From contig QPGO01000006.1 of assembly GCA_008632985.1 (NCBI GenBank), forward strand, positions 555,138 through 619,137: a stretch of 64,000 bases of DNA, given 5' to 3'. A model generated the notes under the pieces. The model saw only the letters and a program-made list of their open reading frames with translations, was not told where the DNA came from and did not search any database. Below, piece after piece: positions 1 through 44,566 of the stretch (positions within the stretch are counted from its first letter, which is position 1; each line of letters starts with the position of its first letter). The position numbers and the translations under genes were made by a program. Source of the DNA: Psammoneis japonica. Taxonomy: Eukaryota.

Positions 1-531
1 TTGCTTGCTTTGCTGCACTGCTTGTAGAACTGGGAGAGCCAAAGGCATCGATGCAAAGAAGCTAGAAGCATCCAACACCAATTGTGGTCAATCTTTGGAT
101 GATGATGATTGCAAACTTTCTCACTTTTGCAGGCATTCTTTGCATTGTCATTGTTGAGGCAAACTTGAGATGTGCTCTGTTCTGGGTGACTGCAGCTTTG
201 ACCCAATGTCAAAGTCATTGCAAAGTTCTTCAAAAACACTTTTTGCTCCTCCAAAACATTGTTTGGAACAAGAACCCAACAAAATGCCTGCATGAGGACA
301 GTCTTGTCTCTCCTGTTCTCATTTGGTGTCATTTGGGTGTGGTGCGACGGCAGCTGTTCTGGCCACATTTGTCATGCTCAACACCACCCAAGAGGGCCCT
401 TGCTTCCTCAGCCAATTGTGGCTGTGGTCAGTTTGCTGCTCTTGTTCTGCAGCGAGCAGTTGGCTGCACATGAATGTGGCAGCAATGATCCAATCTGGAT
501 GTGCTGGGAGTGTTTTTTTGTGCTGTCATGG
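1..531. repeat. Heavily degenerated repeat relic (TA- and CG-poor, TG/CA-rich); host site of the Gypsy insertion
   Basis: Very few TA or CG dinucleotides; only spurious Cys/His-rich ORFs; the same composition resumes after 3680. Confidence 0.6.
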
Positions 532-956
532 TGCAGCATGCCTCGCTGCTGGACAACACGGCGAGACCGTGTACAAGCCTCTTGTGCATGGCAACGCAGC
601 ATTGTTAACACGCACCTGGGAAGCACGACCACAGGAGGGCATGGCTCTAGGTCCCAGGCAATTCCAGAAGGATGCTGAGAGAGCATCCGTGTGAAGCACA
701 CCAGCCCGTCGTCTGGCCCACGATGGTGGCGTGATTCCACATGATGACATCACTCGTGCATGGCGCGTGATGGCTTGATTCGCACGATCCACAACGTGAA
801 CGCACGATCAATTTAATGCGATCCAAATGCGAACGAATGGGGATTTGGCAAGATTCCCTGTTCGCACGATCCCATTTTCTCCACTCTAAACTGGCTCACA
901 ATTTTCACAACAACAAAGTCGCAACACATCTTCTTTTTCAGCGCCTGGTGCATGCA
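532..956 (+). repeat. 5' LTR (425 bp)
   Basis: Aligns without gaps to 3256-3680; begins TG and ends CA. Confidence 0.95.
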
Positions 957-1026
957 TGGGGCACAGTGAGACATCACTCCCGCATGTTGTGCGAGGTGAC
1001 GAAATCTACAGAAATGAAACTACGAA

Positions 1027-3300
1027 ATGTTGGCAGGACCGACAAATCTTAAAACGACCATGAAGAAGCAGATTGAGCCGCCGATTCCGTTCGCACGGCC
1101 GGAGAAGAAAGAGCTGCAGCAGGGCGAGTGCCAGACGTTCAAGCTGCGTAACAACCCTGCTGATCCGGATGGTCCAACGCATGAGATGGGCATTCCGCAC
1201 CTTTCTGCGGCTACATGCGAGACACTCCCAATCTTTCTACGCAACGTGGATCGCGTGCACGAAGGACAAAACATCACGACCGGGCCAGCGAAATTTGCCC
1301 TCATGCGTGACCTGCCACAGGGCGATGCTCTGACGTCATTCAATGATGCCGCTGACAAGCAGGCATCCCAAACCAACGCTGCGCACGCAGCATGCGTCGC
1401 GAAGCTAAAGGAAAGCATCTTCCCACATGGGGCGGTGCCATTGCAGAAGCGTTGTCTGAGGCGCTTCATGCGCAAGCCCGCAGAGGTTTCTGCTCGTGAC
1501 TGCGTCGCGAGGGCTGTTGAAATTAATGGCTGCATCTCTCAGTTTCCACCCGTGACAGAGGATGGAGAAACACCGGCACCATCACCTGATGACGAACATC
1601 CTGATTTTAACAAACCCTTTGAGACACATGCCGATGCCTCTAAATGTCAATTGGGAGCAGTTGCATCCCAGGACAACAAACCTGTCGCCTTTTACAGCAG
1701 AAAGCTCAACAGTGCGCAATTAAATTGTGCAACAACGGAGAGAGAATTGCTCGCCATTGTGGAGATGTTGAAAGAATTTCGAACGATTCTCCTTGGTCAT
1801 CGTGTGATCACACATGCTGATCATAAAAATCTTACGTACAAAGTGCTCAACACCGAGCGCGTTATGCGCTGGCGGTTGGCATGCGAAGAATGCGGTCCCG
1901 AATTGCGCCATGTTGAGGGCACCCACAACCCAGTCGCTGACGCTCTTGGTCGCCTTCGACCAGCACCCAGCTTGCCTTCTGAGGCTAATCCGGATGTAAA
2001 AGACACTCCATCGAGTCATCCTTTGCATGAAGCTTTTAATGCAGATGCGCAAGATGAGCCATCTCTGCCTGTTGGCTTCAAGCGCATTCAAAAAGCACAA
2101 CAAAAGGACAAGCGCCTGCTCTCAAGAGCCAAGGACTCGTCCGACTGCTCCATTCGCGCGTGTCGTGGGGGAGGGTCATCACGACAGTTAATCTGTCATA
2201 AGGACAAAATCGTCGCACCACAGTCATTGCAGGTTCCGCTAACTGAATGGTGCCACAAGACACTGTGTCATCCAGGTGAGACACGCACGGAAATGTCCAT
2301 TGCCCAGCACTTCTGTTGGCCTGGCATGAGGTCTACGGTGCATTCTACGTGCATCAAGTGCGATCGATGCCAGAAGACAAAACGCCGAACGCAGCATCAT
2401 GGGAAGCCACCAGAAAAGGTCGCAGAGACAATTCCATGGGAGACTCTGTGCATGGATGTGATGGGGCCACATAAAATTCAAAGATGCGGAAAGGACACCT
2501 TGCAATTGTGGGCAGTCACAATGATTGACCCAGCAACCGGGTGGTTCGAGATCAAAGAAGTGTCTGCGAAACGTGCAGACATCGCAGCAAACGTCGTAGA
2601 ACAAACGTGGCCATGCAGACATCCGTGGCCAACCCAGGTGGTTTATGACCGTGGGACAGAATTTATGGCAGAATTTAGCCAGATGATTAAAAATGACTGT
2701 GGGATTTTGAAGAAACCCACAAGTGAACGGAATCCACAGGCGAACGCCACAGTGGAACATGTGTGCCAGACACTTGGTGACATGGTGCGTTCCTTTTCAG
2801 CACAGGACATGGAACTGGACAAAGATGACCCATGGAGTGGCATCCTCTCCGCAGCAGCCTTCGCTGTTAGAGCTGCGGTGCATGCGACCACGCGTGCAAG
2901 TCCCATGCAATTGGTCCTCGGACGCGATGCGGTTTTGTCCATTGCCCATCGTGCCAAGTGGAAGTGCACAGAAACCAGAAAGCAGAAGCTTGTCCACTTG
3001 AACAACAAGCGTGAAAATCAGAAACGCAAGGAGCATCAACATGCCGCAGGGCAATTGGCACTTGTCAAACAGGAACAATCCTCTAAATGCAGTTCTGACA
3101 GCTGTGCAGGACCCGCCAGAGTTGTCCGTGTGTGTGACAACGGCACGTTGCGTGTCCAGAATGGAGCGCTGACAGACGCACACAATCTACGGCAGATTGC
3201 ACCCTGTCACCAGCAAGACATTCTGTCACTTGGCGGCCCTGATCATGGGGGAGTGTGCAGCATGCCTCGCCACTGGACAACACGGCGAGACCGTGCATGA
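1027..3300 (+). pseudogene. Gypsy gag fragment fused in frame to RNase H and integrase; protease and RT missing; hypermutated
   Basis: RNase H motifs HADAS..QLGAV, AFYSRKL, ERELLAIV, DHKNL, VADAL; integrase H-H-C-C zinc finger and catalytic core (PWETLCMD, YDRGTEF, NPQANATVE). Confidence 0.9.
3247..3255 (+). other. Polypurine tract of the Gypsy element
   Basis: gggggagtg immediately 5' of the 3' LTR. Confidence 0.75.
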
Positions 3301-3680
3301 GCCTCTTGCACGTGGCAACGTGGCATTGTCAACACGCACCTGGGAAGCACGACCACAGGAGGGCGTGGCTCTAGGTCTTAGGCAATTCCAGAAGGATGCT
3401 GAGAGAGCATCCGTGTGAAGCACACTAGCCCGTCGTCTGGCCCACGATGGTGGCGTGATTCCACACGATGACATCACTCGTGCATGGCGCGTGATGGCTT
3501 GATTCGCACGATCCATAATGCGAACGCACGATCGATTTAATGCGATCCAAATGCGAACGAATAGGGATTTGGCAAGATTCCCTATTCGTACGATCCCATT
3601 TTCTCTACTCTAAACTAGCTCATAATTTTCACAACGACAAAGTCGTAACACATCTTCTTTTTCAGCGCCTAGCACATACA
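3256..3680 (+). repeat. 3' LTR (425 bp)
   Basis: Direct repeat of 532-956 with about 32 transition mismatches. Confidence 0.95.
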
Positions 3681-5330
3681 CAGGGCAATGGTGCTGTGTG
3701 CAGCACGCTGGAGGTAGATCAAAGCCCTGACATTGTGCACCAAGGCAGGCATTTTTTCTTGTCAAGCTTTCTGAAAGCTGTGTGTGAGTTCACAATGGCA
3801 CCCCCAACCCAAGTGAAAACAACGTCATTGCAAACAACATGTGTGCAACTGCAAAGTGTGCACAGCAGCACACACACCCCCTTGCTTCTCAACCATCTGC
3901 TCCTGTGAGTCTGCAAGCACTGCTCTCTTCATCTTTGCACAGTGCACACCCAAGAAAAGAAAGTTTGCAAGTTGACAGCTGGGCCTCACTCAACATGGGC
4001 AATGAGCCCCACCAAACTCATCAAAAACCTGTTGCAACCCTTGCTTTTGCTGAGCATGGCTTGCCAAGAGCACTGGACATGCAATCTGGTGATGCAATTG
4101 CTTGCTGGCACAAGTTTTTCACCACAAAAAAAAATGCACAAGGGACAGTTGCCCTGGGTTGGCAAGAAGTGACAAAGCCCAAAGTGGTTGCCAAGGCAAA
4201 TTTCGCTTTAAAAAAAGGTGACAGCTGCTGCTCCACATTGTTTTGGCAGCTTTGCTGTGGCTCTGGTTTGTTTGGCATGGGGGTTCTTGTGAGCAGAGTG
4301 GTTGTTTCTTTTGCATTTTCTGATTTGGCAGTGCACTTGGTGACCATCAGTTGGGCTGGTTGTTGTGTTGACAAAAAATGTGCTGGCCAGCTGTGCCATG
4401 ACCCAGGCTGTCATTTTGCACATTGCTTGCTGCTCCTGCTCATGGAAAGCAGCTCAGCAACACAGAAAAGTCATCCCTGAGACAGAGCTTTTGTTGTCAA
4501 CTTGAACTCAGGCATGCTCATGTCGACTGAGCAGGTGCTGCGCTTCTTGGAAACAGCTCATCACAAAGGCTTGTCTCTTTGAGTGATGGGCACAACAGAC
4601 TGCCACAACACTTGGCTTGTTCTCACCTTTTCCAGAGCCTTTTTGCCATCTGGGGACCATGAGATTGGCTGTTGGTAACCTCTCACTTGCCAAAGTGGAG
4701 CAAAGCAGAGAGCTTGTTTTGTTCTCAGCCATGTGAGCATGATGGCGACAAAGCTCTGAGCAAACAGAGCTTGGCACATGGCATCAGCGCACATTTCAGC
4801 GCAGTCCAAAAACACGGGGCAAGCTCAGGTCAGAGGGATGGCGCCCAACCCTGCTTTCTCCTTTTCTTCATGAGCGAGCACCTCTCTCCCCGCAAGAGCC
4901 AATGTGCCCAGCTGGGAGCATCTTCATCATCTCTTTGGCTCAAAGCCTCAAACCATTTGTGCCTGCATCGGATTTATGCACATTGTGGGAAGACAATGAG
5001 GAGCATTCTGGAGAGCTGCCTCCTGAGTTTTTCCAAGTTTGGGTGGAGCTGTGGTGACGAGGAGCTTTGGTTTTTGGGCGTCAATCAAAACAATGGCACC
5101 GTGCCTCACAGATGTTTGCAGATGATGTGAACACAAGAAGAAGCACAAGAAGTGCAATCCACACCTTGCAGTGAAGAGAAAGATGGCTTGCCACCACCAG
5201 CAGATCAGCTCTCTTCTCTCTCTCTCTCTACCAGCAGCAGAGTAGAGAGCAACTGCCAGTGGCACCTGGTGGCTCGAACCGCATGCAAACAAAAAAAAGT
5301 GTCACTGTTGCCTCATTCTGTAGGGTTCTT
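3681..5330. repeat. Unidentified degenerate repeat relic
   Basis: Near absence of TA and CG; abrupt return to normal composition at about 5330. Confidence 0.6.
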
Positions 5331-5589
5331 TCGTTAAATGAAGGTCATCATTACATCAAAATTACTTAAGGAGCTGTGACAACGAAGAATACTTCGTTTT
5401 CCTATTGACATTTCATCGTCGTTGCAGTTGCGAATCGGTGTCAAAACAAGGTGTCACGCCTTTGATGGCAGGTTTGAGGAAGGAGCAGAAATGCGAAGAT
5501 CTGATGAAGATCATCCTACAGTACCAATGTACCCATCAATCGTCTCACAAACACAATTGCAACGCAACATAATCTGACACTTTCAAAAA

Positions 5590-13777: not shown

Positions 13778-14599
13778 GGTTGATCCTTTTGTTTTGTATG
13801 ACTCGCTTTTATTGTGGATTATGTGAGGTGTGAGCGTTGAGCTGTCGAGGTGCACGAGCGTTGGAAAGAGAGATGCCTTCGCATTCAAAGATCTTGTATT
13901 AAAACTCTACGTACTCGAATAAAATTTGAAATTTTGAAATTGGCCGGAGAAAATTTGTATGATAGTAGTCTGTCTTTTCAACAAGAGAAGATGCGTTTTC
14001 GTTCCTACCCATTTCGTCCAACAATCTTGTCTGCCTCAAAAATCTCTGAAGCTGCGGGAAAGTCAGGTTATGAGCCAAAACTAGCGCTCTGATGCTGTCG
14101 TGAAACAAGACTGTGTCGTGCGCTGGGTACACCATCCACGACCCCATGTTGGCGGAAACAGTCTGCGTGCGGTTCACGTGAAAGACGCGATTTTTTCAAG
14201 AGAACAAGACGATTTCGGCCCTCTAGTTCAAGTTTAAGCCTAGGACCAGATTTAATTCTTGACAGGGCACTGCCACCACAATTGAGAGCCATTGAGTAGC
14301 CAGTTTGCATGATGGCAGTGACACAGAAATCTGATGGAAAGAAAACGCAAAAATGAGTGCGGTGCGGTGCAGCATTTTTGTCCGCGTTTGGAATCCCTGT
14401 CGCAGGCTCCAGCAGCTTACAACAGATGTGTCATGCTACAGCATCTAAATGCACATCATGACTGATGAAAAGAAACAGTTTGCCATCCACACTGCAAACA
14501 GAGCCAACACAGATTGCAGCAGTGTGCTGCTGCGATTCAATCCCTGCGAAATTGCGACCCCGACTGAACCTTGTCCGGCTTCGGCAATGGAACGTCTTT

Positions 14600-15654
14600 C
14601 GGATTCGGCTTCAGATTTCCATGCAAATCTTCTGTGCAAAAAGACCTTTGCCATGCTCAAATGACAATTGTGTCACAACAGCGCAGGCACGGAAACATTG
14701 GCTGTGCAGGCGGATGTCGTGACGAAAGCATTGCGAAAGACACCCAAACAGCTTGAGACGATCATTTGCCGTCTCTTGTTTGTTGCGCACAGCCCCTCTG
14801 CCTTGGCGACAACTTTTGGCTCCATGTGGCGAATCCCACTCGTGCTCTTTACATGCTCCGGGTCCTCCGCTCCGCAGCCATCATCGGCTTCGACCCTCTC
14901 GTTCTCTCCCAAACAGTGCTTGACAGAGTGACGGAAGATTTCGAGATCGGGCCAATCTCCACAAGGAAACAGCCCGTTGATCCACACAATGTTGCCGGTC
15001 AAAATGCACACACAAACTTCATGCCGGAGGGCAGCCTTTTTGAACTTGAAAGAACAAAATGCCTTTGGGTTTTTCCCTTGGCTGGTCGCTTGACAATCGG
15101 TGCAATCGACTGTCACCAAGCAGTCGAGGCCCTTGTCTCTAATGAGATGATTCAACCACACAATCTGTGAAACCCGCAGAGGAAAAGGTCAGACTGAGCA
15201 TCATTCATGTGACACAATCAGGCTGAAAACTCACCACTTCGAACTCCAAATGCGAAACTCGGTCAATGAAGAACCAACTCCACTTGCGAAACGTCTGTTT
15301 GTCAACTCCGCCGCATTTACAAGCAAGGTCTTCTTCGGTTTTGTATGTTTTCACCAAAAGCAACGCCCAGAGCAGATGAACTGGCTTTGCATGTTTCTCA
15401 TCTTTATCTGGCTCTGATTCTGGGTCGGGAACGCCAATCCTCAGCCCAATCCAGATGTCGACACAGACAGCGGGCTCAACAGCAAAGTGAGATGTCCACC
15501 GTCGGTTGAACACCACTTCGCTCCCAGTCCACGGGTGGCGGTTCATGATTTCACTGCCAAGTTCAATGAATGTGTCGTGGTCAGGACCCGGCTTCTTCTT
15601 TGTGGGGGGTCCTGCCGTGGCATCGCCCTGTGGGCGTCGTCGAGTCAACGACAT
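14600..15654 (-). mobile_element. Degenerate DDE_Tnp_4-type (PIF/Harbinger/ISL2EU-like) transposase with one intron
   Basis: HLLWALLLVKTY, VDKQTFRKW, VTVDCTD, RHEV, IVWINGLFPCG, VEADDG; GTGAGT...CAG intron at 15234-15165; frameshift near 14790. Confidence 0.85.
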
Positions 15655-15970
15655 CGTGGAGTGTCGTTTTCTCCGCAAAACTGGGCCCGCCAAGATGGAT
15701 GCAACATCAATGATTCTTGTGCAGTCTCGAATGTGGTTTTTTTTTGTGAGCCGTTAAAAGTCATGCATTGATGCAGTGCGGTTGTGCGACGACACAGGCG
15801 AACGCTTTCGAACTGCTTCGCACAGTGCCGTGATGTACGACGCTCAACAGCTGTGATTTGAATTAGAGTTCTTAATCCATTGAGGTTGTGTGATAAAATA
15901 CAATGCATTGGCTTGCACACACATGAAATGTAATTTTTGCATCTGTGGATGTGCAATTTTTCAGAATCTG

Positions 15971-16510
15971 GAATTTTGACCGGACTTTTTGATTTTGACC
16001 AAAAAGAGAAAGTCCGGTCAAAATTCAAAATTTTCGGTCAAAATGAGCCGAAAAAAAAGAGGCGTTTTCGGCTCACTTCAGTGGCCTGCTGTCTGCAACC
16101 AAAGCCCGTTTGACAGCAGGCCGCTGCTTGTTCAAGGAGTGCTGCATGACTGCTGTTCAGAATCATCCTTCTTCATGTCATCTGCGGATTAAATCTAAAG
16201 ACACACAAGGTTGCACAGACATGAAAAAACTGACCTGAAAATGGTTTTCAGCTCACTTTAGCCTCATTTGCATTTTGTGTGATTGCACCAGACGGCAGCA
16301 CTGAGGTGCTTTCTGATTGCTTGTTTTTGCAACTCTTTGACAGTGTGTCATTGTGTCATCCAACGGCCTTTCGCATGAAGACAGGAAGGATTGAAGTGAC
16401 CGGAAAATGAAAAAGACCCATTTGAAATTTTGGGCCGAATTCGATTTTTCCGGTCGGATTGACCGGACATTTGTTGCTTGACTGGAATTCTCTCAACTGA
16501 CCGGAAATTT
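15971..16510. repeat. Cluster of transposon terminal and subterminal motifs
   Basis: Perfect 18-bp inverted repeat at 15971-15988/16009-16026; related ends ttttcggctcacttca (16065), ttttcagctcacttta (16245) and inverted tgaagtgaccggaaaa (16392); repeated TGACCGGA. Confidence 0.65.
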
Positions 16511-16773
16511 GGCGTTGATGTCCAATGATCACATTCAGTTTTAAAGCCATCATTGTCAACGTCACCATAAAAGCTTGCATGTGATTTTATCGTGTGTCTC
16601 TGCGTCACCTGCACAATGAAAACGTGGCATGGTGCACGCAGGCAGCCCAAACGAAGGCTCTCGATGGCTTTCGAAGAACGAAGCCGAGGCTCCACGCTCA
16701 CTCAGGAGCCAAGACGCAGACGCATCCACCCGCACTTCTGAGCTTGATCATCGTTGTTTGCTTGCTCCTGTCA

Positions 16774-18043
16774 ATGGGACCGCGTTGGGGAACAAAGCAA
16801 CGTCACGAGTGCACGAAGCACTTTAACTCATTCCATGCCAGCAAAGGCAAAGAGGGATGGGACCCGAACAACACCGAGGAGGCGTGTGTCAAGTCCAAGG
16901 TCGCGATGTCGGAAATCATCCGTCCGTTTCTGCATCGAAACCTTGGTGGTCACAAAGATCACAAATCGTTTGACAAGGCTCTCGGTGGCTACAAAAGAAC
17001 CTCTGGTGAGCATTTTGTTGAATTGGCCATTGATGGAACCCGTCGAAGTGCGTGAATTGTCACTTCACCCTGTTGGTTGTTGTTCACGCTCACATTCGCC
17101 GTGACTCATGATGATCTTTTTTTTCCTTGACAGAAGCATGCCCAGCAGACAAGGAGAAAACAGGCGCACGGGCAACTCAAGAAACAGCAGGACAAGGGGT
17201 TGCACGGCTGCCGCAAGGAGGAGACGAAAACGACGACTGCGACAGTGCCGACGACAGCGACCATGAGTTCGAGGAGCAAGAAGACAAATCTGAGGAGGAG
17301 GCGGACGACGAAGGCAATGGCAACAAGCAACAAGAACCCATGAGCACTGGCAACATGAAGAGCCCCAGTGCTGCACCAAGCAAGAAGTCCAAGACGAAGA
17401 GGACTCCCAAGAGCTCCTCGAAAAAGAAGTCGGGCGCAGAAGACTCTCGTCTTGCAAGAGAAATGCAGGAGAAGCTGAACATCTCCAGCCACACGCGCTA
17501 CGTCCGAGACGACATTTTGCCATGCTCCCCCCCATGTCTGGACAGAGCCGGACTCGGGGATCAACTGCGTCACGATCGAAATCGAGCTCCTTGGCACGAT
17601 GGTGGCGCAGGACTGCAAGCCGAGCATCGTGCGCGATGGCACAGAGGTGACTGTGGAGTGCAAGTTCCCAAATGGCGGGGACCTGATGGACCCAGCACAC
17701 CTTTTGTTGACTCACAAGGATCACATTGATTTTTCAGATCAGCACCCGAAGTGTTCAGCCAAGCAGGGGGGCAATGAGGGCCTTGAAAGAGTTGAGCTTT
17801 GACAAGGAAGAAGACAGGAAGCTCCACATTGAGCTTCCTTTCCCTTGCAATTCGAGTGGATTCTATGATCCACTCAAGGATGAGGATAACCAGCATCCAG
17901 CGGTCAACCTGTGTCCGATTCATCCGCGGGAGAGTGTCCCTGAAGGTGCGCCGAAAGCATCCATGAAGAAACCAGAGCTGACCCTGGAGAGCTTGGAAAA
18001 ACCCAGGCATGCGCAAGAGGTCGTGTCGGCTAGTTTCTTCTAG
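16774..18043 (+). pseudogene. Degenerate gene, probable accessory gene of a DNA transposon
   Basis: Lies inside the TA-depleted domain next to terminal motifs; likely intron about 17048-17132; acidic/Lys-rich linker; frameshifts. Confidence 0.45.
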
Positions 18044-19351: not shown

Positions 19352-21350
19352 TTACACGTAGTATGCCTTGATGAAAATACTTTGAATCCACGGTTCAATC
19401 GATGCTCTCGTGAGCAAATAAAACACGACACCCAATAAAATGGAAATTGGCAAGGCAGGCAGTGCATGATGATAGACGGCCAACAGAACAAGGGTAAACC
19501 CAAGACCCGCCAACACAACCAAGGTGCAGGCAGCAAAGGTTGTGAAACTGTACAAGGCAGCGGTTGCCACCAAGATGGAATAAAAGATAAAAGTCGCCCT
19601 AAAGGAGAAAAAAGCAGCATAGACAGTGAGACAAAGAAGTCGTCTCAAAATCTGAACATCTTTTGCACAAAAATGCAAACCAACTTACAAGGCCCAGCTT
19701 AATCGTACTGTCCTTTTGCGATTCGTCGGCATCTCGAGGTTGCTCTTCAAACACTCTTCCATCTTCAGCTACATATAGTCGTCGCCGTACAACTCCGTGC
19801 CGATCTCGCACAATATACCGTGGTCCATTGTTGCTACCATTTCCGTCCGATGGGTATTCACAATCAATCCGTCCACCGTTGCGAGGAAAAATAGCTTCGA
19901 CATTGGCCTGCAGTTGAGCAGGTGTGTAGAGCCGCGCCAAGAGGGCATTGGGAGTTGAATTTGCAACCTCTTCTTCGGTCAGCTCTTCTTCTGCTTGTCG
20001 TGCCGGTTGGACGGGGTTGACGAGACGTAGTTTATACAGTTTGGCAATAGCTAGCGGAATCATGGCTGTTGGACGACCATTGTTTTGGTTGTTTGGTGGA
20101 GAAGCATCCGTATCTACGTGATCAGCCGTCTCTTCTGGTTGCGGTATTGGAAACCCTTGGTCGTCCACCCCGGAAAACGACGACGTGCTTGTGGGAGACA
20201 CGTCTGGTATCTCCTCGTCGGTCTCAACAACAACGCTATCTTCTGGTACAGTCATGGATGATGATCGAACCGTGCTTTCTACACCCACTGCACTGGATGA
20301 CCCAAGGCCTGAATCAGTTCGTACAGTGGTAGCCACGCTGGTCTCTTCTACCGTCAGTTCTGTATCACTTTGATGTCTCAATCGTCTTGCTCTTCGTCGT
20401 CTTCCCGGTGAATGTTCTGGCAACGTCTCTTCGGCATTTCTTTCTTGAGTATTTCTAGCACTCTCTGTAGCATTGTTGCTATTTTGTTGTTGTTGCTGCT
20501 GCTGCTCTTGTCGTGATCCCGGTCGTCGAGCATGCGATGGCAAATGTGCTTCATACAAGAGTCCAGGAAGTATTCCGTCCGAACCTTCCTTGGTCATGAG
20601 TTTCACCAACCACTTGAGTGGTCCACAGGGTGTCAGGACGGCACACAAATCATACAAGGCCAACATGACAAGCAAGGTCCACGATGTCCACGCATCAAAG
20701 TTGGAAAGCTGCCACGCCAAAATGACTGAAGTCGCAATGAGATATCCCTGTGTCGCATAGACGGGCACGCCTCGAGCAAAAAAGACACAGACGGTACCGA
20801 CCAGTGCAAAGTTCCACATTGTAAAATAAAAAGAAATCTTGTCAATGGTCAAATTGTACTTGTCAATTGCCACGGTAAACATGCGTCCACCCATAAATCC
20901 CAACAGCGTTCCGGACGCCAGCACCATGTAGGCCATTAACACTTTGAAGCACTTGTACTTGTACAGAAGTACAATCCCAAACGTCATGGCACACACCACC
21001 GACACGATGATTAGCGCATTCACCACGGACAAGCCCAGTGTTTCGGAATTGGAAGACGAATCAGTCGTGTCAAACACCGTGTAGGCGTTTGCCAATTGTT
21101 CTTGTCCTTCTTGTCGAGTTTCATCGGTATTGATATAAATGACAGCCAGTGATGCCAATACCATGGTGAGTGTTACGGGTTTGACAATGGCGTGATAGGA
21201 AGCGGCGCTGTACATGAGTTCCTCCACCGATAATTGATTACTGTTATTGTTGTTGTCATTTTCAGCAGAATTGTTGCGGTTGTTGTTTGTTGATGATGAT
21301 TCCTCTTCTTGTACCGCCTCCAGTCTCTCATTTTCTTCTTGAGGACTCAT
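19352..21350 (-). CDS. PSEN: Presenilin (gamma-secretase aspartyl protease), intron 19688-19599
   Basis: LALYDLCAVL (YD), spliced IKLGLGDFIFYS (GxGD), ALPALPIS (PAL), multiple TM segments. Confidence 0.95.
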
Positions 21351-21862
21351 AAGTATTGTAACAGGAGCGTCTTGTATGCAATCTAGTGTAAAGGTCAACA
21401 CAGAACCCAACAAATGCGATGATATGATCGACCGTGAGCGACCGAAAGGTCGAGTGTTGCGTGTTGCTTCACGCGCAACAACATACATGCTGTTTTTGCG
21501 CGTCGTCCGTTTGCCGTTGGGCGACTATGCCAAACAGTCATTATATACATATAAGTGATCTTATACAAATATAAAAGTTTCTAATTGCCCAAAAGCCAAT
21601 TCCCGGAACATTCAATCCCACATGAAATATACCTATTCAAACATGAGAATAGAACATTCGTTCCCGGATCACGTCAAAATGGCACAAAGGTCACGAAAAA
21701 ATCAAACGCCAACGCATACATCCGACCGTCGCGACGACTCGAGTCGTGACTTGTTTTGACGCGACTACCAAGAAGAGCACAATACCGGTAGTAACAAACC
21801 CGTCACACAAGAAGGGGTGCATGAATGAGATATCCTTTCGAGTAAAAAAGAGCATTCCAAAA

Positions 21863-25269: not shown

Positions 25270-26173
25270 TCACCCGGCGTTCATGTAGCAAATGAAGTAG
25301 TAGGCCACCACCGCCAAGAGGGATGAATCGAAGCGATCCAGGATACCACCATGCCCTGGAATGAGTCCAGACGAATCCTTTTTGCCACATTTGCGCTTGA
25401 CGGCACTCTCCACCAAGTCACCCAAGATTGCGAGAAAACTAAGCGTCATTCCTAAAGCTAGGCGTTGTGATGGAGAATTGTATGGAAATGATATTTGCCA
25501 ATCATATCTTGATAGAAATTGTAAAATAGTCTTGTTTCGCAAGGCAAAGCTCCACAGGGCTGGTATGATACATGCGGTACCCGTTCCTCCCAGCATACCA
25601 CCCACCATTCCCATGACGGTCTTGGAGGGTGAGTTTGAGCGAGCCACTTGCGAAATGATACGCCGGATTTCGTTCTGTTTGTGAGTCCAGAAATTGTTTT
25701 TCGCTTGCTAACACTCTTACTTAATCGCCCTACAAGGAGTGCCCCCGTGTCACAATTCCATACAATCAGCAACAAGGAAACAGCATGACAAAACGACTTG
25801 TCTACCAGCTTGTACCAGAATCCAAACGGGATGGCCAGATAGACGAATCCAAAGATACAGTGACTACTTGTGTCTTGCGGATACCACACCAAGTAAAAGA
25901 GACACGATACCAACACGAGCGCGGGTAGAAATAAACTTCATTGTAGTACAAGAGCATAGAGAGTCCCATGCAACTCGCAACAAAGAGCCACTTTTTGTAG
26001 TTGTTGGAAACTTGAATCAGATGGATCCACTCCAAGCACGCCAAACAGTGAATTCCTTGAACATGACATAGCTCGTAACTATCACTCAGCATGAATATCA
26101 CAAATGGAAAGCCGATACAAATCGTCGTGAGACGACGAGGAAGGTCTGACCATTGTGACCGCGACGACGCCAT
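25270..26173 (-). CDS. Phosphatidate cytidylyltransferase (CDP-DAG synthase), frameshifted in this assembly
   Basis: WNCDTGALLVGR, SPSKT, GDLVESAVKR...KDS..LIPGHGGILDRFDS signature. Confidence 0.9.
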
Positions 26174-28029: not shown

Positions 28030-28199
28030 GGCCTCATGGACGCCTATATCACCTTTGGAGGGCGCGGTGTTGTTAATGGGAGGACCCTTGTAGGTGTTAC
28101 TTGCTGCCGCAATAACAAAGGCAATGAATGACCGCGTCCTCTCGAACCTTACAGATGAAGTCTTGTGCCGCCGATCCAGCACCCACCGACGCTCGCTCG

Positions 28200-29430
28200 C
28201 TCGATGCCACATGAAAAAAGTCGGTCAGAGCTCCCCTGCGGAGCTCGCTTGAACACTGGGAAATCTGCTGTCTCTCCAACACAGTGCTGCCAATGAAGTG
28301 AATGATGTTCCCCAAGACCACCATTTCCCCATTGACCCAACTCCAAATTCCCCTCCAGACCAGCAAACCCAGCATGCAACAAGAAGCAGTGCAAAGAGCA
28401 GCGTGCCATCACACAGGAGCATGTGCTGCAGCAGAGAAATGCCTCCCCCACAGCACGTGCGCCAGTCTCCTCCCAAAGCATCACTCTCAATCACTTTTTC
28501 AGCTTGCTTGGAGTGAAACTGACAGTGAGTGTGAAGCTGGGTTGCAACAAACATCTCTGCTCTCCTGCCTCATTTGCCCAGAGGAGCTGCTGCTGTGTGG
28601 CTGGTGTTTTTTTGCGCAGCCTGCTTCCCAACAAGTGGGGGGGCACACCGCCCGCTAATCTCGAAGACCTGCCCAAAGCTCTGTTTGGGCATGAAACAAG
28701 ACAGGGAGCAAAAACAGTCACAAAAGCACTTTGAAAAGCAGCTCCCTCCAAGGTGTGCTGCTGGTGCTTTGTTGCTTTGGGGGTGCTGCAAAGGGGTGGT
28801 GCGCAGAGGGTTGCTGCTGACCACATGTCTCTGTCAACTGTCAACGGGGCAACAAAAACAAAAACAAAAGGACATCTTTTGGCACTTGTGGTGCAGGGTG
28901 TTTTCACTTGTGCAGATGAACAACTTGATGTTGCAACATTTGGCACGCTCACCTTTGCCACACAAAAAGGCAAGGTGCCCGAGGCAAAGTCACAGGCCTT
29001 GGCCTGTCAGGCCATCCAAACCTCTGTCCTGCACACACACTTGTCTGCCATGTCTGTCATGACAAATGCTGTGGTGTGATTCTCAGAGCTCAGCAGAGGG
29101 CAAGATGCAGCAACGCACAGAGCCACTCGATGGCTTGACCACGTGCGCAGGAGCAGGAGAGCCACTTGGGCCTTCTCTCTGGCCACTCTGAACCCCTGAG
29201 AGCTGCCTCAGATGGGAGTCAACTCAATGTCATCTAATTTGAAGGCAGGTTCCTAGCTCCAAGCTGTTCTCTGGAGCTTTGGGTGTGATCTTCTTCACAC
29301 AAAGCACCATCATTGCAGTGATGATGCGCACTCAACAGCGCCACCTTGCGGTGACTCGCATGACTCAATTCATTCACGCGAGCTCATCGCTTCTGCCTTC
29401 TGCGTTTCATCAGCGGTGCCGGCAAAGGAT
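28200..29430. repeat. TA-depleted degenerate repeat relic
   Basis: Very few TA dinucleotides over about 1.2 kb; CG depleted centrally and retained at the edges. Confidence 0.55.
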
Positions 29431-32824: not shown

Positions 32825-34012
32825 TTAATTCTCTTCCTTTTTCTTCAAAGCCCTCAAAGCCTCCACTCCCGTTTTCAACTTGACACCGTCTAGGAGCGGC
32901 ATGTCTTTGAGCACAACGTCCGAATGGTTGTGGACTAAATCCACAACGTCCTCCATGGTGCGTGCACCAAAGGACAGCAACGTATCTGCCACTTCTTTTG
33001 GCAGCCTCTGTCGATTAAGCCATCGTTGCATGTCAGCCTCGTCCTTTTCGGTAGCGCAGGGACGTAGGGGATCATTTTCAGAATCATTTGCGGCTTTGGG
33101 TTCTTCGGCAATTGAAGCATTATCTTCTTGGGAGTCTTGAGCAAAGGAAACATTAACTTCCTGGGGCAGAAAAGCCACCGTGCTTGGGGTGCCGGGCGAA
33201 GCCGCGAACTCTCGCGTCTCCGGAGTAAACTTGTGCTGTGATGACGGTGTGCATTCACTGCAGTCTTCCAAAGAGGAAACTGATGCCCTCGAAGACATGA
33301 CAGATGAATGCACAGAGATGACTTCATCTTGAGTGCTGTTGCGCTGCTGTTTATGAACTTGATTGTCTCGGCCTGTCGTGTTGTTGCCAGCTGCGGACAA
33401 TCGAGCTGCAACAGCAGGAGTTTCCTCCCGAGAGACAGAAGTTTTCTTACGAGCAGCATCTGGCACCCCAGCTGCGGGAGGAGCAGTCTTCCTCTTTTTG
33501 TTGGTGCCGTTTTGCTTCTTGGAGTGCTGATTCTTCTCCTCTTTGGCAGAAGGAGACACGCGAGCCGCTTGTTTCTTGCCGCCTTTGCCAGCAGACGCTT
33601 TGCCATCATTTCCTGAACGACTGACAATGTGGCCAACCGTGTTGCCATCTTCAACGCACTTTTTCCAAATGTCTTCATAGCGATCAAACTTGCCCGCACC
33701 GTTGGGGTCAAAAAAGAAATACGACGTGTGTTGTCCGCGGCGCGGTCGGCTTTTCCAACCCTTGGGCACCAGACAGGAATGAAAAACCCGCTTGCCATTG
33801 TCGCGATGAAGAAGCTTGTCTTCTTCATCCTTCGCAGTCCGTTTCATGGCTCCCAGTTGATTCAATCCTCTTGCTTCTACACAATCATGCGTTTCATGCA
33901 CACCATTGTTGTCCGTGACGTGGCACAACCTTTCCTCTTGAGGAATGCTCCGGTCAATGCCGTTGCTCGAACGGGTCACACGACGTGACGACGAATTCGT
34001 CGGTGTGCTCAT
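32825..34012 (-). CDS. Protein with an MBD-like N-terminal module and a SAM-like C-terminal module; TA-poor
   Basis: VPKGWKSRPRRGQHTSYFFFDPNGAGKFDRYEDI resembles MBD; MQRWLNRQRLPKEVADTLLSFGARTMEDV...KLKTGVEAL resembles SAM. Confidence 0.5.
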   Translation of the reverse strand: MSTPTNSSSRRVTRSSNGIDRSIPQEERLCHVTDNNGVHETHDCVEARGLNQLGAMKRTAKDEEDKLLHRDNGKRVFHSCLVPKGWKSRPRRGQHTSYFFFDPNGAGKFDRYEDIWKKCVEDGNTVGHIVSRSGNDGKASAGKGGKKQAARVSPSAKEEKNQHSKKQNGTNKKRKTAPPAAGVPDAARKKTSVSREETPAVAARLSAAGNNTTGRDNQVHKQQRNSTQDEVISVHSSVMSSRASVSSLEDCSECTPSSQHKFTPETREFAASPGTPSTVAFLPQEVNVSFAQDSQEDNASIAEEPKAANDSENDPLRPCATEKDEADMQRWLNRQRLPKEVADTLLSFGARTMEDVVDLVHNHSDVVLKDMPLLDGVKLKTGVEALRALKKKEEN

Positions 34013-34247
34013 GATGACGGCAAGAACCGGCTGCGGTGTGGAAATGCTGGAAACGAGAGAGAAAGAGAGAGAATTGTGAGCTGACCCTTTGATGAAATGC
34101 CGAGTGCACAAGGTCTCTCGTCCCGTGAAACGCATTGCTCTCACCGTTGTGACTGGTGAGACGTTGCAGCGACCCAATTGTCTGCGATGTTGGCTGTTCT
34201 AACGTTTGCGTTAGACCCCTGCATGCACAAAGTATGCCTTTATTGTG

Positions 34248-39890: not shown

Positions 39891-40831
39891 CCCGAACCGC
39901 CTTGAGAAAGAAAGAATTAACAAAAGGGAAAAGTATAAGTAACGGGTAACGGCAGAAGCAGGAGCTAGAACAACCGGATTCAACAGAGGAATCTCAATCG
40001 AGAGTATGAAGTCTTTGTCAACCGAGTCATAGGGAATACTAACAAAGAAGAAGGTCATCCGCCTTTGGTGCTTACCATGACAGTTCTCTTTTCGTGCCGG
40101 CAATGTGACGGCCAACGTGGGAACACGACGAAGAAATCCGATAAAGGGCAAGCTGCACGCTCGGTCGCTCGTCATGGCACGATATTCTAGGTTGAGGCAC
40201 ATCAACGGAGAGTGCCATGCTCTGGATGGGTACCCTATTCATTGATAAGGTTGGATGGTCGTCACGATGTTGCTTTATCAGCTCCATCACGCTTGCACAC
40301 AAGCTTCTCTTCTTGTTGTGTTGGAAAAGAGAAAATTGCGATCCCCGATCCCACGAGTCGCTAAGTGCGGAAAACAATTAGTGTTGTCCTTTCTACAAGT
40401 TTTATGTACTGGAAGGTTACGAAAATTTTTAAACGTTTCACGGGATCGTGATATGACCGTCTCTCATAAATCTCTTCCATCAGCTGTTTATCATTATTTA
40501 TGACGAAATGACTGTGATTGACATTTCCATATAGTTCGTGAGATGAAACCAATGACCAAGTCGAATTAACCGAATGTTTGAATATTAAATATACTAATTT
40601 TGGAAATGAATAATTTCGAACGATTAAATTTGCAGCGTACCATCGGTACAGCTCTATACTGATCTAAAACACTGATACTGAAGAAGGTATCATCATAAGG
40701 CGATTAAAGTCGTTATAGACTTGAAATATTAGTAACGGAAATACTATGATCTATTGACTTTAACGTTTTCCATATGACATTGTTTACCCGTTTGAAATGT
40801 CATACGGTATGGAACATGTCCGTTCCACGTC

Positions 40832-41560
40832 TTGCCTGAGGAGGAGTCTGCGAGAACACGAATCATCTTTCTGCTTTCTGCTCTCACCACTGCCAATCCA
40901 AAGAAATCCCATGGCATTGCACTCCTCAAACACCTTGGTCGGCACCTGCTAAAGACATGCAACAAGGGCTGCTGTGTTCAGATGCCACCTGACTGCACAA
41001 AGAGTTTTGAGTGCTGTGTGGATGCTGATTTCTCTGTGGCAATTGTGACAAAGCACCCGCAGCTCAGGGGATCCCAAGCGACACGGCAAAGTTTCACAGC
41101 GGCTTTGCATTCTCAAGCATGGAAGAGCCCCACCATCCACTGGTCATCCAACTTATAGACTCAGTTTGCTCTCAGCAGCAGTGAGAGTGAATGCTTGGCC
41201 ATGCCAGCTCTGCTGCCAGGCAGCTCATGTTCTTCTTGAGGCACCCGCGCATCTGTGTTTGGACAAGGTCAACAAAACATTTTGCCCAGTGACAGCCACA
41301 CCAATGTCACTCTGCAAGCTGTTTGAGGGCAGCTTGGCAGCACTCAAAATCACCAAGGTTCTTAAGATGAGGCCCAGAATGCATCACATCAACAGCGCAT
41401 CTGCCGCCACCACTTCCCTGCTCAAAAATCACTGCCCATGGATGCCTCCTGACTGAGGCTGTCGGGGCTGAACTTCAACAGGCTGACTTCTTGACCAAGA
41501 TGCTCAACATGTCAACATTTGTGTGCCATCATCTGTCTCTTCAAGGATGGCAATTGTTTG
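40832..41560 (+). mobile_element. Ty1/Copia RT C-terminus and RNase H relic
   Basis: KHLGRHL, FECCVDADFS, FALSSSESEC, CKLFE, KMRPRMHHIN, QQADFLTK. Confidence 0.8.
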
Positions 41561-42474
41561 AGTGTGACATTGTGGATCATGCACTCATGCAGCACCAGCC
41601 TGGTGCCTCAAGCTGCGAGAGACCAATGATGGATGACTGCCACAACAACCGCCATCAACAAATGAACCAGTCACAGATCAAACAACAACAGATTGCTCTC
41701 ATTGATCCTGAAGGTTCAAATCAAAAATGAAGCATGTCTTCTTCTTGCTCTTCTCTCGTGCAAATGAGAACTTCTTGTTTTGGGCAAGTCTTTCACTCAT
41801 GTTTGTCTGTGTGGGCTCCGGCACACATGCCAGCCAGTCACTTCTTGTTTTTCTTCTCATTTGTTGTTGGTTGTCAAGCAGCCCAGTTTTAAGTCTCACA
41901 ATTTAAAAATTGGCAAATTCAAACCCTGCGTGATTGTCAATCTTTGCTGTTTTTTGGTCTCTGTGGTGCAAAATGCCGTTGACCCCCGCGCACTTTGCAG
42001 CAGCTCACAATCATTCATTCATTGTTGTCATCTTGTGCTGATCAGTTCATTCATGGAGAGGGGCTCACCAATGTGTTGATGCCACCCACTTGCACCACTT
42101 GACTGGAAGCAATTCTCTGTTGTCATGCAGCACTGAGCATCCAGGTCATGCTTCTGCTTCATTTTTTTTACTTTGGTTGGAGTTCTCTCTCTCTCCTCTC
42201 TCCTTCTCTCTCTCCAATGGGCACTGTTGGTGAAGTTCTCTCTCACTCTTGTCATTTTCATTGGTTCCATGTGGTGCTCCTTGTCTCTCGGCAGTGCCTG
42301 CACAACAGCAGCCATCATGTGAATTTTCTTGTGGCTGCAAGAAGAGTTGCGGTGTGTGTCCACACATTTGCACCCTGACAAAAATGAGTGCAATTTGCTT
42401 CTGGACTTGTGCTCTGGAAAACTCAGCTGGCAGGTGGCTTTCCCCTGCCCTGCATGAGGACCAACAGCTTGATT

Positions 42475-43167
42475 TCATGATGCTTCGCGGCCCATTGTTG
42501 CACTCACTGTGGACATCATGCAATGGTGTTGTGCAAAAGCTGCTTGCAATTTGTCCGGGAGAGATGGATCATCCTCAAGCCACTCAAAATCGCAAGGAGG
42601 TAGACCGGGATCATGCTTGGACTTCTTGTGCATCAGTCCCCAATGTTTGGTGCACCACAAATGCTTGGCCATGTGCTTGAGTGGATCACAACAACGAAGC
42701 TCAGCCGGGGCCTTGGAAAACTTGGACAAGGTGACAACAGGACAACCAACATCCAAATGACAACAGGAGCAGGCAAAGACCAACTCACCCAGAGCAGAAT
42801 GGCAAGAGAAGCCTTGGGACTCAGAGAGAGCATCATGCTCAGGAGCACCCTCTTCAGGGCCTTCAGCAGTGTGCAGATCAGGAATGCAATCAACCGGAAT
42901 GGGTGCAGCCTTGAAATCAGACTCAGATTCATTCGCAGCGAGAGCATCCCAACCATGGGTCTTGAAGACACGATCAAGGCAGCTGGCAACATTGACAGCA
43001 ATTGAATCGTCATTTTGGATGACATCAATGCCATTGAATTCAGCAACCAAGCCCAAATGCTTGAACGGAGGAGTGTCCTCATTCTCCATCTGGAGAGCCT
43101 TGCCAATGTGGTCGCAGATCTCTTTTGCAATCTTTTTGGAGGGACAAGCAAGAGCAAAAGAAGTCAC
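42475..43167 (-). mobile_element. Ty1/Copia (CoDi-like) reverse transcriptase relic
   Basis: FALACP, PFKHLG, FNGIDVIQ, GFSCHSALGELVFAC, DVGCPVVTLSKF, AKHL..TKHWG. Confidence 0.85.
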
Positions 43168-43980
43168 GCCACATCATCAGCCCTTGAGATTGTTGTTGTG
43201 TTCCGGTGTTGTGATTGGTTGTCCTTGTTGTTCAACTCAATTCAACTCAATTGTCGTGTGTGTTTGCCAAGGCAAAAACAACTCTGCTTTGCTGGGGCGC
43301 AGTGCCAACTGCTGCACTGAAAAAGGGACACCAGGTGGTGAGATGAGACAGCAGCGCCATTTCTCTTTTCTGTTTGCACTGCTGCCCAACTTTCAGACAT
43401 CCAACATGACCTCAGTTTCAACCCTTTTTGTTTGTCACATGAGATTCATTTGTTCCCTGCTGGCTGACAGCATTGCAAAACAACTCTTTTGGTTTTTGCA
43501 CAGGCTGAACACTTGCTTCACTCATTGAAAAAATTTGCACTTTTCTGGGACAAGAAGGGTTTGTTTTCATTGCATCCTGTGTTTTCATTCTTGCAGCTCA
43601 TCTGAGTTCATTTCCTCCAATTCAGGCAGCATGCACAGCTTGCCACAAGCTGTGTGAGCCTGTCATGTCTTTGCACACCATCATCTTCAAGAAGTTTGCT
43701 GTTGGGGGTGCATTGACACACAAGTCAACTTGGCAGAGCAGCTCTGTCTTTGGCTCATCTGCCACCTTGGCCTTTGACGCTGGTGCTTTCTTTGTGGCAC
43801 TGATGCAGCCCAAGAAGCCCAACGACCATTGGCTCTCAGTGCCAGCCACAAGCTTTGTTTGCTGACTGCCCTCCATGCTCCCCCTTCTTTTTGCTTGTTG
43901 CCTGTCATTTTCCACCCAAATTTGCTTCTCTTGCAATCTTAAATTTGCTCTCTCCCACCATTTCCTTGCTTGACAACAAT

Positions 43981-44040
43981 GCTCATCTCAAGCATGACTG
44001 CAGTGACCGTGCTCATCTCAAGCATGACTGCAATGACTGT
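43981..44040. repeat. 30-bp tandem duplication
   Basis: gctcatctcaagcatgactgca.tgac.gt twice. Confidence 0.85.
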
Positions 44041-44176
44041 GGCACCAATGTTTTGTCAGGAGCCCACCTGGTCAAAGTCTTTTCATGGATCTCATCACAC
44101 TGCCAGCAGTGCTTGGTTTTGTCAAACATCATGGTTGCAAAGCTTTTCTTGTCCTTCTTTGTGAGAATTCTTTCTC

Positions 44177-44566
44177 GACGCGTTCCAGCCCTAGGTGGGA
44201 CTCCGTGTGACATTGGGCCCGTAGAATTCTACGTGCGAGCTCCGTAGTACGAGAATTTAATTAATGGATATATTTATCTTCAACATCAAATAAACGGCCA
44301 AGTTTGTGGTACAATTATGCCTCTTACCACTCGACGTTTTTGCAACTTCGCCTGCCCTACGCGATTCTTAAGACATTGTAGAATCGCGCTGTAACAAAAA
44401 ATGTCAAAAGTTGTTACACGGATCACTCAATAAGTGTACCGTAAAATGACACAAAATATCAAAAAAATCACGTAGAAATCTACGTGCGCGACATACGACG
44501 AGACTCAAAAAACCATCGATGTCACAGTTCAGTAGTACGAGGTCCCACCTAGACCTGGAACGCGTC
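44177..44566. mobile_element. Putative 390-bp MITE with 30-bp imperfect TIRs and TCTC flanking duplication
   Basis: gacgcgttccagccctaggtgggactccgt (44177-44206) is inverted relative to acgaggtcccacctagacctggaacgcgtc (44537-44566); tctc on both sides. Confidence 0.6.

Follow-up and report, generated by a model that had tools for sequence, protein, structure and literature searches.

Transitions at TpA and CpG steps in the divergent long terminal repeats of a Ty3/gypsy-type element and in other transposon-derived DNA of Psammoneis japonica

Results

A Ty3/gypsy-type element with two divergent repeats

A stretch of 64,000 nucleotides of Psammoneis japonica DNA (contig QPGO01000006.1, positions 555,138 to 619,137; the whole stretch is called the window below) carries near its left end an element bounded by two long terminal repeats (LTRs), the 5′ LTR at 532-963 and the 3′ LTR at 3256-3687, both on the forward strand. 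The bounds were set by a gap-free alignment at an offset of 2724, which gave 432 bp for each copy; the original prediction of twin LTRs that align without gaps was correct, but its length of 425 bp was too short. Both copies start with TG and end with CA, they are 92% identical to each other, and the end of the LTR is supported by the many contig pieces from a public run that stop or diverge at 963-965. The sequence ATGG is found at 528-531 and, as an exact match, at 3688-3691, and is read as the target-site duplication, and a polypurine tract, GGGGGAG, was read just 5′ of the 3′ LTR (3247-3253). The internal region of ~2.3 kb is a single open frame of 760 codons (1018-3300, + strand) with an unassigned N-terminal part, an RNase H, an integrase zinc finger and an integrase core, i.e., the Ty3/gypsy order (RT_RNaseH, 9e-25; Integrase_H2C2, 4e-12; rve, 2e-5, the last being below the Pfam cut-off). 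Judged on its sequence, the element is a Ty3/gypsy-type LTR retrotransposon that is internally deleted and non-autonomous, because no Pfam match to reverse transcriptase or protease (RVT or RVP) was found in the open frame, and because 12 full-length relatives, which are colinear with it, align only from their residue ~505-555 onward.

The element clearly belongs to a large, diverged, high-copy family. When contigs of one public run were aligned to positions 300-3250 at a likeness of at least 80%, 3,547 pieces were obtained: 739 were at least 99% alike, 906 were 95-99% alike, 1,400 were 90-95% alike and 502 were lower, so that 1,902 fell below 95%. The summed word depth was 11,000-72,000 over the element versus 60 over the single-copy flank, this depth not being a copy number. 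A repeat search of the 64-kb window returned only the LTR pair, and tblastn of the window with 12 pol proteins matched only the gypsy element at 532-3687. No stretch of metagenomic DNA matched a 47-nt degenerate pattern of the LTR, and in a search for shorter proteins no fragment of the family exceeded 63% identity among the matches listed.

Spectrum of the mismatches between the LTRs

The two LTRs differ at 34 of 432 columns, a difference at position 964 being excluded because it is outside the LTR. The ~32 mismatches counted in the original prediction were thus slightly too few, but the spectrum it described was right: all 34 are transitions, with no transversion and no indel, which has a P of ~1e-6 even if two thirds of all changes are assumed to be transitions. 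Furthermore, all but one of the mismatches (33 of 34) fall on a pyrimidine-purine (YR) step, the share of such steps among the positions being 55.6% (binomial P = 6e-8); this is in line with the context-specific mutation that had been proposed, and not with ordinary decay. The LTRs share 120 YR steps and differ at 27, namely at 14 steps that are TA in one copy and CA or TG in the other, at 6 that are TG in one copy and CA in the other (flips; five had been counted before), and at 7 that are CG versus TG or CA. The earlier counts of the first and third classes, and of a single mismatch outside this scheme (position 654, C/T before C/T), were reproduced. The copy that carries TA is the 3′ LTR at 12 of the 14 steps and the 5′ LTR at 2, and the copy that carries CG is the 3′ LTR at 6 of the 7. 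As had been noted, the TA sites of the 3′ LTR are mainly distal, 10 of the 12 lying at LTR positions 261-423, and this clustering bears out a patchy exposure. The distal half of the 3′ LTR (3472-3687) has 12 TA and 17 CG, with observed-to-expected ratios (o/e) of 0.74 and 1.62, respectively; the 5′ LTR, the more mutated copy, has over its full length 5 TA (o/e 0.22) and 27 CG.

The flips bear on the ancestral state of these steps. If their ancestor was TA, 3 sites are intact in both LTRs, 12 are hit only in the 5′ LTR, 2 only in the 3′ LTR and ~12 in both (the 6 visible flips doubled), and this table fits independent hits (odds ratio 1.5, P = 1). A CG ancestor was rejected, since the corresponding table (26/6/1/12) is not that of independent events (odds ratio 52, P = 7e-6). 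The TG-versus-CA sites are therefore compatible with a TA ancestor that was hit independently in each LTR. This spectrum also affects the age that would be read from the pair. The Kimura two-parameter distance is 0.086 over all sites and 0.005 at the positions outside YR steps (1 of 192), so LTR dating is here ~16-fold too old; the overestimate that had been anticipated is thereby given a size.

TA-poor domains across the window

Over the whole window TA is present at 0.45 of expectation and CA/TG at 1.33, and the distribution of TA is bimodal, with 15-40 TA per 500 bp in genes and intergenic DNA and 0-7 per 500 bp in poor blocks. The TA-poor domains add up to 19,539 bp with 126 TA (0.64 per 100 bp) and the remainder to 44,457 bp with 1,837 TA (4.13 per 100 bp), i.e., TpA is depleted 6.5-fold. 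Per 100 bp, CA and TG rise to 10.5 and 10.1 in the poor domains from 7.2 and 7.6 in the others, and CG falls to 3.1 from 5.4, while A+T is nearly equal (0.50 in TA-poor and 0.53 in normal domains). In poor 2-kb windows the o/e is 0.02-0.27 for TA and 1.37-1.78 for CA/TG, and the counts of CA and TG are about the same in every TA-poor domain. The median spacing of TA is 16 bp; the longest run without TA is 1339 bp.

Two grades of TA-poor domain can be distinguished, one with normal CpG and one in which CpG is also poor, the older domains being CpG-poor. To the first belong the LTR element, 14446-17864, 33448-34200 (a short TA-free domain) and 52572-53551, and to the second 1-531, 3688-5400, 28150-29235 (TA-free, with reduced CpG), 40816-44176, 44567-47400 and 50865-52500; the CpG o/e is 0.20-0.35 in the oldest domains versus ~1.0 in genes. 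The TA-free, CpG-poor stretches at 1-531 and 3688-5400 are the left and right flanks that host the LTR insertion. The domain at 14446-17864 (− strand) holds the remnant of a PIF/Harbinger-type transposase, with an open reading frame (ORF) at 14673-15185 and transposase pieces at 14673-15188 and 15205-15753 (−). Its CpG is normal (5-8 per 100 bp) and its TA is nearly absent; therefore, the loss of TA seems to come earlier than that of CpG. The domain at 40816-44176 (− strand) is TA-free and CpG-poor, holds a Ty1/copia reverse transcriptase remnant (42475-43173, −) and contains the 1339-bp run; it continues, likewise TA-free and CpG-poor, at 44567-47400. The last domain, 50865-53551, is TA-free throughout, CpG-poor up to ~52500 and CpG-normal from there to an abrupt right edge at ~53551. 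A Pfam search with 27 + 12 ORFs of the TA-free domains assigned no family and returned only chance-level matches up to E = 10.

Between the two parts of the copia domain lies an element of 390 bp (44177-44566) with 30-bp terminal inverted repeats that are 87% complementary, with CTC/TCTC at its flanks. It has ~26 TA and normal TA and CG contents, and looks like a miniature inverted-repeat transposable element that was spared by the hypermutation or is younger than it. The intergenic DNA that adjoins the TA-poor blocks is TA-rich, and this rules out a mutation bias of the whole genome. Because of these TA-rich neighbours and of the unmutated inverted-repeat element inside a block, neither a genome-wide bias nor a simple regional spread accounts for the domains.

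Systematic transition errors at modified motifs occur on some sequencing platforms, and an artefact of sequencing or assembly at modified bases in methylated repeats could in principle mimic such domains. This explanation is hardly credible here. The edges of the domains are abrupt, within ~20 bp, and an artefact would not track transposon edges this closely and yet spare the inverted-repeat element. In addition, over the 261 bases of single-copy, TA-free flank at 300-560, independent contigs of a public run depart from the window at one base only, and the family pieces that are at least 99% alike, given above, point the same way. The single difference in the flank, at position 481 (A versus G, i.e., CA versus CG), is of the CpG-decay type and separates strains or alleles.

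Three further observations concern the reading frames and repeats of these domains. In TA-free blocks, e.g., at 17065-17733, overlapping frames of 150-250 codons occur in several frames and on both strands, because only TGA stops are left. A 457-codon frame at 32825-34198 (−), to which no Pfam family was assigned, is TA-free in its upstream part (33448-34200) and normal in its downstream part, and may be chimeric or spurious across the domain edge. At 43980-44039 a 30-bp unit is duplicated in tandem, and its two copies are set apart by one G/A and one C/T transition, changes of the kind seen between the LTRs.

Direction of change at conserved residues

The direction of the changes was read at columns that are conserved among homologous proteins. 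The gypsy frame, compared with 60 of 120 listed homologs, has 316 conserved columns, of which 251 are identical. Its Tyr content is 0.5% versus 4.0% in the homologs, and at the 13 conserved Tyr columns it carries His in 6, Cys in 5 and Tyr in only 2. For the copia remnant (ORF 42475-43173), an exhaustive phmmer search gave 597 relatives, and RVT_2, along with further copia-type domains, is present in each of the three long ones tested. When the remnant is compared with 87 of 150 listed matches, its 9 Tyr columns have become Cys (5), His (2), Ser (1) and Phe (1), with none kept. This remnant contains no Tyr at all, and it also shows changes of Arg to His, Cys or Trp and of Pro to Leu, typical of CpG loss. 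The nearest named Atlas clusters of the Harbinger ORF (14673-15185) are DDE_Tnp_4 transposases (score 0.95), and in comparison with 7 metagenome loci all 3 of its Tyr columns are changed (Cys 2, His 1). When the three transposon superfamilies are pooled, 21 of 25 Tyr columns are His or Cys and 2 are Tyr. As a control, the presenilin of the host, compared with 70 of 120 listed homologs, has Tyr at 12 of 13 Tyr columns and Phe at the other, so that Tyr is kept at 2 of 25 columns in the transposons versus 12 of 13 in the host gene (Fisher P = 4e-7).

The replacement of Tyr (TAY, where Y is a pyrimidine) by His (CAY) or by Cys (TGY) corresponds precisely to a change of TA to CA or of TA to TG, respectively. 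At the codon level, 80 changes were inferred at the conserved columns of the gypsy frame: 38 are TA to CA or TG, 6 are losses of CpG and 27 transversions; these counts depend on a choice of ancestral codon that favours transitions. The transversions probably include ordinary divergence between lineages, because the homologs are only ~60% identical. Independently of the choice of ancestral codon, T precedes in 12 of the 15 cases of A to G at codon position 1. As read from these residues, the change in the transposon DNA of the window runs from TA to CA or TG, and the original prediction of TA lost and CA or TG gained therefore holds at the level of the genome (Tyr columns and, as described below, family), although within the LTR pair it can be read at only 2 of the 14 sites. 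In three of the metagenome relatives of the Harbinger element (L001-L003) the Tyr residues are kept, yet the contigs have a TA o/e of 0.36-0.46, which hints at a partial TpA depletion of Harbinger elements in other organisms.

The same data bear on an editing of RNA or cDNA intermediates before integration. In animals, APOBEC3 and ADAR act on single-stranded cDNA or RNA, before integration and with strand asymmetry, and the deamination of retroelement intermediates is established there. The changes described here resemble such editing in being context-specific transitions in mobile elements. They differ from it in that both strands are affected about equally, as seen in the directions of the mismatches between the LTRs (T>C 8, C>T 11, G>A 9, A>G 6) and in the parity of CA and TG in the domains, in that the cut-and-paste Harbinger element shows a corresponding loss of Tyr to Cys or His, and in that the two LTRs of one insertion differ, i.e., the changes are post-insertion. 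Editing of the APOBEC or ADAR type, which would be strand-asymmetric and restricted to retroelements, was thus rejected, and a pre-integration origin of the mismatches is highly improbable.

Bases that flank the changed step

The 126 TA that survive in the poor domains are not a random sample of flanks (chi-square P = 2e-18; expected counts were taken from the normal domains). YTAR, where R is a purine, is found 59 times versus 22.8 expected, and TTAA is enriched 4.3-fold, whereas RTAY is found 9 times versus 38.8 expected, and ATAT not at all. The mass balance of tetranucleotides indicates that YTAY was converted mainly to YTGY and not to YCAY. In agreement, the Tyr codons that follow a pyrimidine have become Cys in 11 cases and His in 2, and those that follow a purine have become His in 7 and Cys in 1 (Fisher P = 0.002). 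The changed base is thus an adenine with a pyrimidine on its 3′ side (TAY) or, equivalently, a thymine with a purine on its 5′ side, and YTAR survives because of this rule.

T to C at RTA and A to G at TAY are indistinguishable by symmetry, and hence the flanks would equally suit a process with another chemistry, in which the thymine of TpA is modified or oxidised and mispairs with G. Enzymes of the TET/JBP type yield 5-hydroxymethyluracil and 5-formyluracil. None of our results supports the thymine route, and the sole published proposal for this signature, in the text of the preprint considered in the Discussion, is adenine deamination; we consider a thymine chemistry improbable.

Direction of change among the family copies

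Variation within the gypsy family is itself almost confined to transitions (243 of 250 variable places). For polarisation we used the best 40 of these 250 places, at each of which at least 79% of the depth differs from the window; a table of this kind polarises only those LTR sites at which the 5′ LTR stands apart from the family. From the family to the window these 40 places comprise 21 changes of CG to TG or CA, 6 of TA to CA or TG, 4 of CA or TG to TA, 3 of TG to CG, 5 transitions of other kinds and, in the flank, 1 CpG polymorphism, with no transversion. Per site, the window copy has lost 6 of ~40 TA (15%) and 21 of ~180 CG (12%), and the other classes stand at 0.8%, 0.6% and 0.4%; at least 6 losses of TA at the background rate would have a P of 5e-6. 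In the gypsy element TpA is thus as mutable as CpG, and both exceed the other transitions ~20-fold. Nine of the 34 LTR mismatches are polarised among these places, all as changes of the 5′ LTR. They include CpG losses at five of the 7 CG sites (588, 641, 742, 797 and 810) and, at 882, where T makes up ~98% of the family depth, a change of TA to CA. The family consensus can therefore be read at two of the 14 TA sites, and it divides between them: at 882 TA is ancestral, as the original prediction assumed, and at 572, where the family has C in all its depth, the 5′ LTR has gained its TA from CA.

At the 12 sites where the 3′ LTR has TA and the 5′ LTR does not, the 3′ LTR probably keeps an ancestral TA that the 5′ LTR has lost; this is favoured because of the fit to independent hits, of the unmutated-like composition of the distal half, and of the rarity of changes from CA or TG to TA, found at 4 of 518 sites (0.8%) in the window copy (572, 815, 1986 and 2598). 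The opposite reading is a deamination of cytosine in the manner of repeat-induced point mutation (RIP), under which the 12 TA of the 3′ LTR would be new, made by a local burst of C to T at CpA/TpG, and the TG-versus-CA sites would be two-step changes (TG to TA to CA) inside the 3′ LTR. A gain of this type is seen at 572, with three more at the other positions just given. None of the 3′ LTR's 11 other TA sites is among the places with at least 79% family difference, so the letter of the 5′ LTR is not rare there. This reading, however, would need 11 gains within ~300 bp that spare every CpG there, from a class of change as rare as this in the window copy. The distal 3′ LTR also keeps the family-majority CpGs (797 and 810), along with the TA and CG contents given above; all transposon domains of the window are TA-poor and none is TA-rich, and the polarity read from the residues is entirely opposite. 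We therefore consider the RIP-like reading of the 3′ LTR unlikely.

A further alternative is that the two LTRs are not sisters, and that recombination or gene conversion with a less mutated member of the family brought in the mismatches as family polymorphism. The size and diversity of the family, the prevalence of transitions in its variation and the clustering of the TA differences in one segment of ~290 bp would suit it. On the other hand, there is no indel or transversion by which a foreign tract could be recognised, and the 4-bp target duplication around the element is perfect and hence indicates a single insertion. A polymorphism of the family would, moreover, still require the same mutational process. 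An origin of the mismatches in such an exchange is rather improbable.

Neighbouring genes

The genes of the window are mostly uninterrupted. The presenilin gene used as control lies at 19602-21524, and its labelled relatives among the matches listed are all from diatoms (Thalassiosira, Cyclotella, Skeletonema, Fragilaria and others), at ~41-55% identity, and no listed match comes close to being identical. An open frame at 25273-25707 (−) matches only the final third of the profile CTP_transf_1 (CDP-diglyceride synthase), so at least some host genes are here split by introns. From 54158 to 63999 (+) five long open frames follow each other (314, 813, 834, 838 and >450 codons); their TA content is normal, no Pfam family was matched, and they may be a single very large gene or a gene array.

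Discussion

Two proposed transition processes restricted to inserted elements

We propose, with a probability of roughly 0.7, that the differences between the LTRs are explained by two element-restricted transition processes on transposon DNA. Four points are drawn directly from the counts given above, namely the signature, the direction of the changes, their confinement to DNA derived from transposons of three superfamilies, and the flank rule; what follows concerns the process behind them. In the first process, TpA would be turned into CpA or TpG by an A:T to G:C transition on either strand of the palindromic step, and in the second, CpG would be turned into TpG or CpA by the usual decay of methylated cytosine, so that both would push YR steps toward CA/TG. 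Both would act on double-stranded chromosomal DNA, not on intermediates of reverse transcription, because a Harbinger DNA transposon is affected and the strands are hit equally, and both would be limited to the inserted element. The LTRs would have been hit independently after insertion, the 5′ LTR nearly throughout and the 3′ LTR with a spared stretch of ~290 bp. Since a site is no longer TA after one hit, each TA would end as CA or as TG, and a TA struck on opposite strands in the two LTRs would give a TG-versus-CA flip, which explains the flips between sister LTRs. The agent of the first process may be a TadA/ADAT-like deaminase with a preference for a 5′ T, which would convert adenine to hypoxanthine, a base that pairs as G; that such an enzyme is at work, and that it serves in defence, is suggested by analogy. 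General domain scans, in the window ORFs that they covered, detected no deaminase domain. Diatom transposons are methylated, and the CpG losses would be deaminations of methylated cytosine. That the edges are sharp and the inverted-repeat element is untouched points to a mechanism that recognises the element itself or to bursts of limited duration; repeat pairing, small RNA or chromatin may be the means of recognition.

Several observations weigh against this explanation or restrict it. Only 9 of the 34 LTR mismatches are polarised, all of them at places where it is the 5′ LTR that stands apart; among them is the gain of TA at 572. The change of TC to CC at 654 and that of TG to CG at 795, another of the 7 CG sites, where TG is the family majority, fit neither process. 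At 882, 677, 1316, 1905, 1948 and 2553, TA is kept by 83-98% of the family depth, and therefore saturation is not reached everywhere. None of the 11 Tyr codons that the gypsy frame has lost is among the best 40 of the 250 family differences; many losses of TA may therefore be common to the family and older than the insertion, and not private to this copy. The comparison of TA-poor with normal domains presumes that they started from a similar composition. Finally, a symmetric TAY rule predicts His and Cys at about 1:1 after a purine, and the observed ratio is 7 to 1.

Comparison with known systems

A signature of this kind has been reported from mutation-accumulation lines of the rhizarian Bigelowiella natans, in which 231 of 302 nuclear mutations fell in an integrated nucleocytoplasmic large DNA virus (NCLDV) and an integrated virophage (bioRxiv 10.64898/2026.01.13.699255, Mettrop et al.; the comparison made here rests on the main text of this preprint). 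Of the 231 mutations in these inserts, 230 were A to G or T to C, all 230 of them at TpA, at a rate ~1000-fold above background and in some lines only. The same authors describe clusters of 1-kb windows poor in TpA and rich in CpA + TpG, with an enrichment of DDE and reverse-transcriptase domains among TpA-poor coding sequences; they propose an ADAT2-like deaminase as the agent and point out that ADAR and ADAT favour a U or T 5′ of the edited A, the tRNA target being the A that follows U33 (10.64898/2026.01.13.699255). Such a target would account for the 5′ T that the changed steps require. The window agrees with B. natans in that changes occur at TpA and give TpG or CpA according to the strand, affect only mobile or foreign DNA and spare host genes, in that TpA is depleted and CpA + TpG gained in clusters, and in that the activity is uneven and episodic. 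The poor 2-kb windows mostly exceed the cut-offs used there (0.43 for TA and 1.52 for CA/TG).

The two cases also differ in several respects. The affected DNA consists of viral inserts in the rhizarian, where the NCLDV target is single-copy (10.64898/2026.01.13.699255), and of transposons of three superfamilies in what is here a diatom-like stramenopile. The depletion per 2 kb reported above is near saturation, versus an o/e of 0.45 for the B. natans NCLDV region. A decay of CpG, which the text of the preprint does not mention, accompanies the loss of TA in the window, and the TAY flank rule and the read-out from an LTR pair, both available here, do not appear in that main text. Conversely, the mutations of B. 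natans were measured de novo, whereas those in Psammoneis japonica are known from sequence alone.

In fungal RIP, as known from Neurospora and others, C is changed to T mostly at CpA, so that TpA, stop codons and AT-rich DNA arise (PMC2621366). The process considered here is like RIP in that dense transitions permanently inactivate repeated or mobile DNA, stop at sharp edges, are patchy and inflate the divergence of duplicates. It is unlike RIP in that TpA is destroyed, A+T barely altered, TAA and TAG stops removed, and decayed frames left open. With TpA depleted 6.5-fold, the polarity opposite and A+T unchanged, mutation of the fungal RIP type was rejected. The 21 polarised changes of CG to TG or CA and the low CpG o/e of the oldest domains are like the CpG decay of methylated transposons in vertebrates and plants; this decay, however, covers only 7 of the 27 YR steps that differ between the LTRs, and none of the TA loss.

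Outside the B. natans preprint we found no description of a TpA-directed mutation of transposons, in diatoms or in general, and the available text of a 2025 preprint on diatom transposons (10.1101/2025.10.24.684338) contains no terms for RIP, hypermutation, dinucleotides, deamination or methylation. The locus is apparently a new case of the TpA hypermutation known so far from one preprint, saturated and located in the transposons of a stramenopile.

Implications

For genomes of this kind, LTR-based dating and ORF-based gene calling would, if the far-reaching reading set out in the next paragraph is true, be systematically falsified. A near-complete erasure of TpA would take Tyr codons and the stops TAA and TAG with it. 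The length of an ORF, including that of the 760-codon frame, is no sign of function, because the removal of these stops keeps frames open, and homology searches miss remnants, as illustrated by the blank Pfam result for the copia and Harbinger pieces. Beyond what the main text of the B. natans preprint offers, the TAY rule, the near-saturation, the element-sharp edges and the coupled loss of CpG are specifics that can be tested.

Tentatively, and with the odds somewhat against it, diatom-like algae may possess a defence that resembles RIP and is chemically opposite to it, in which a DNA adenine deaminase with a 5′-TAY preference would act in bursts on both strands of new or repeated elements, followed by a slower decay of CpG. 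Since the same signature is found in a rhizarian, the system would, if this is true, be ancient within the group of stramenopiles, alveolates and Rhizaria or wider. Apart from this reading, the locus would add a stramenopile to the one rhizarian alga in which TpA hypermutation has been observed experimentally, and transposons of three superfamilies to its targets among integrated viruses. This speaks for a defence common among eukaryotes, in which adenine or thymine, and not cytosine, is the base edited in DNA.

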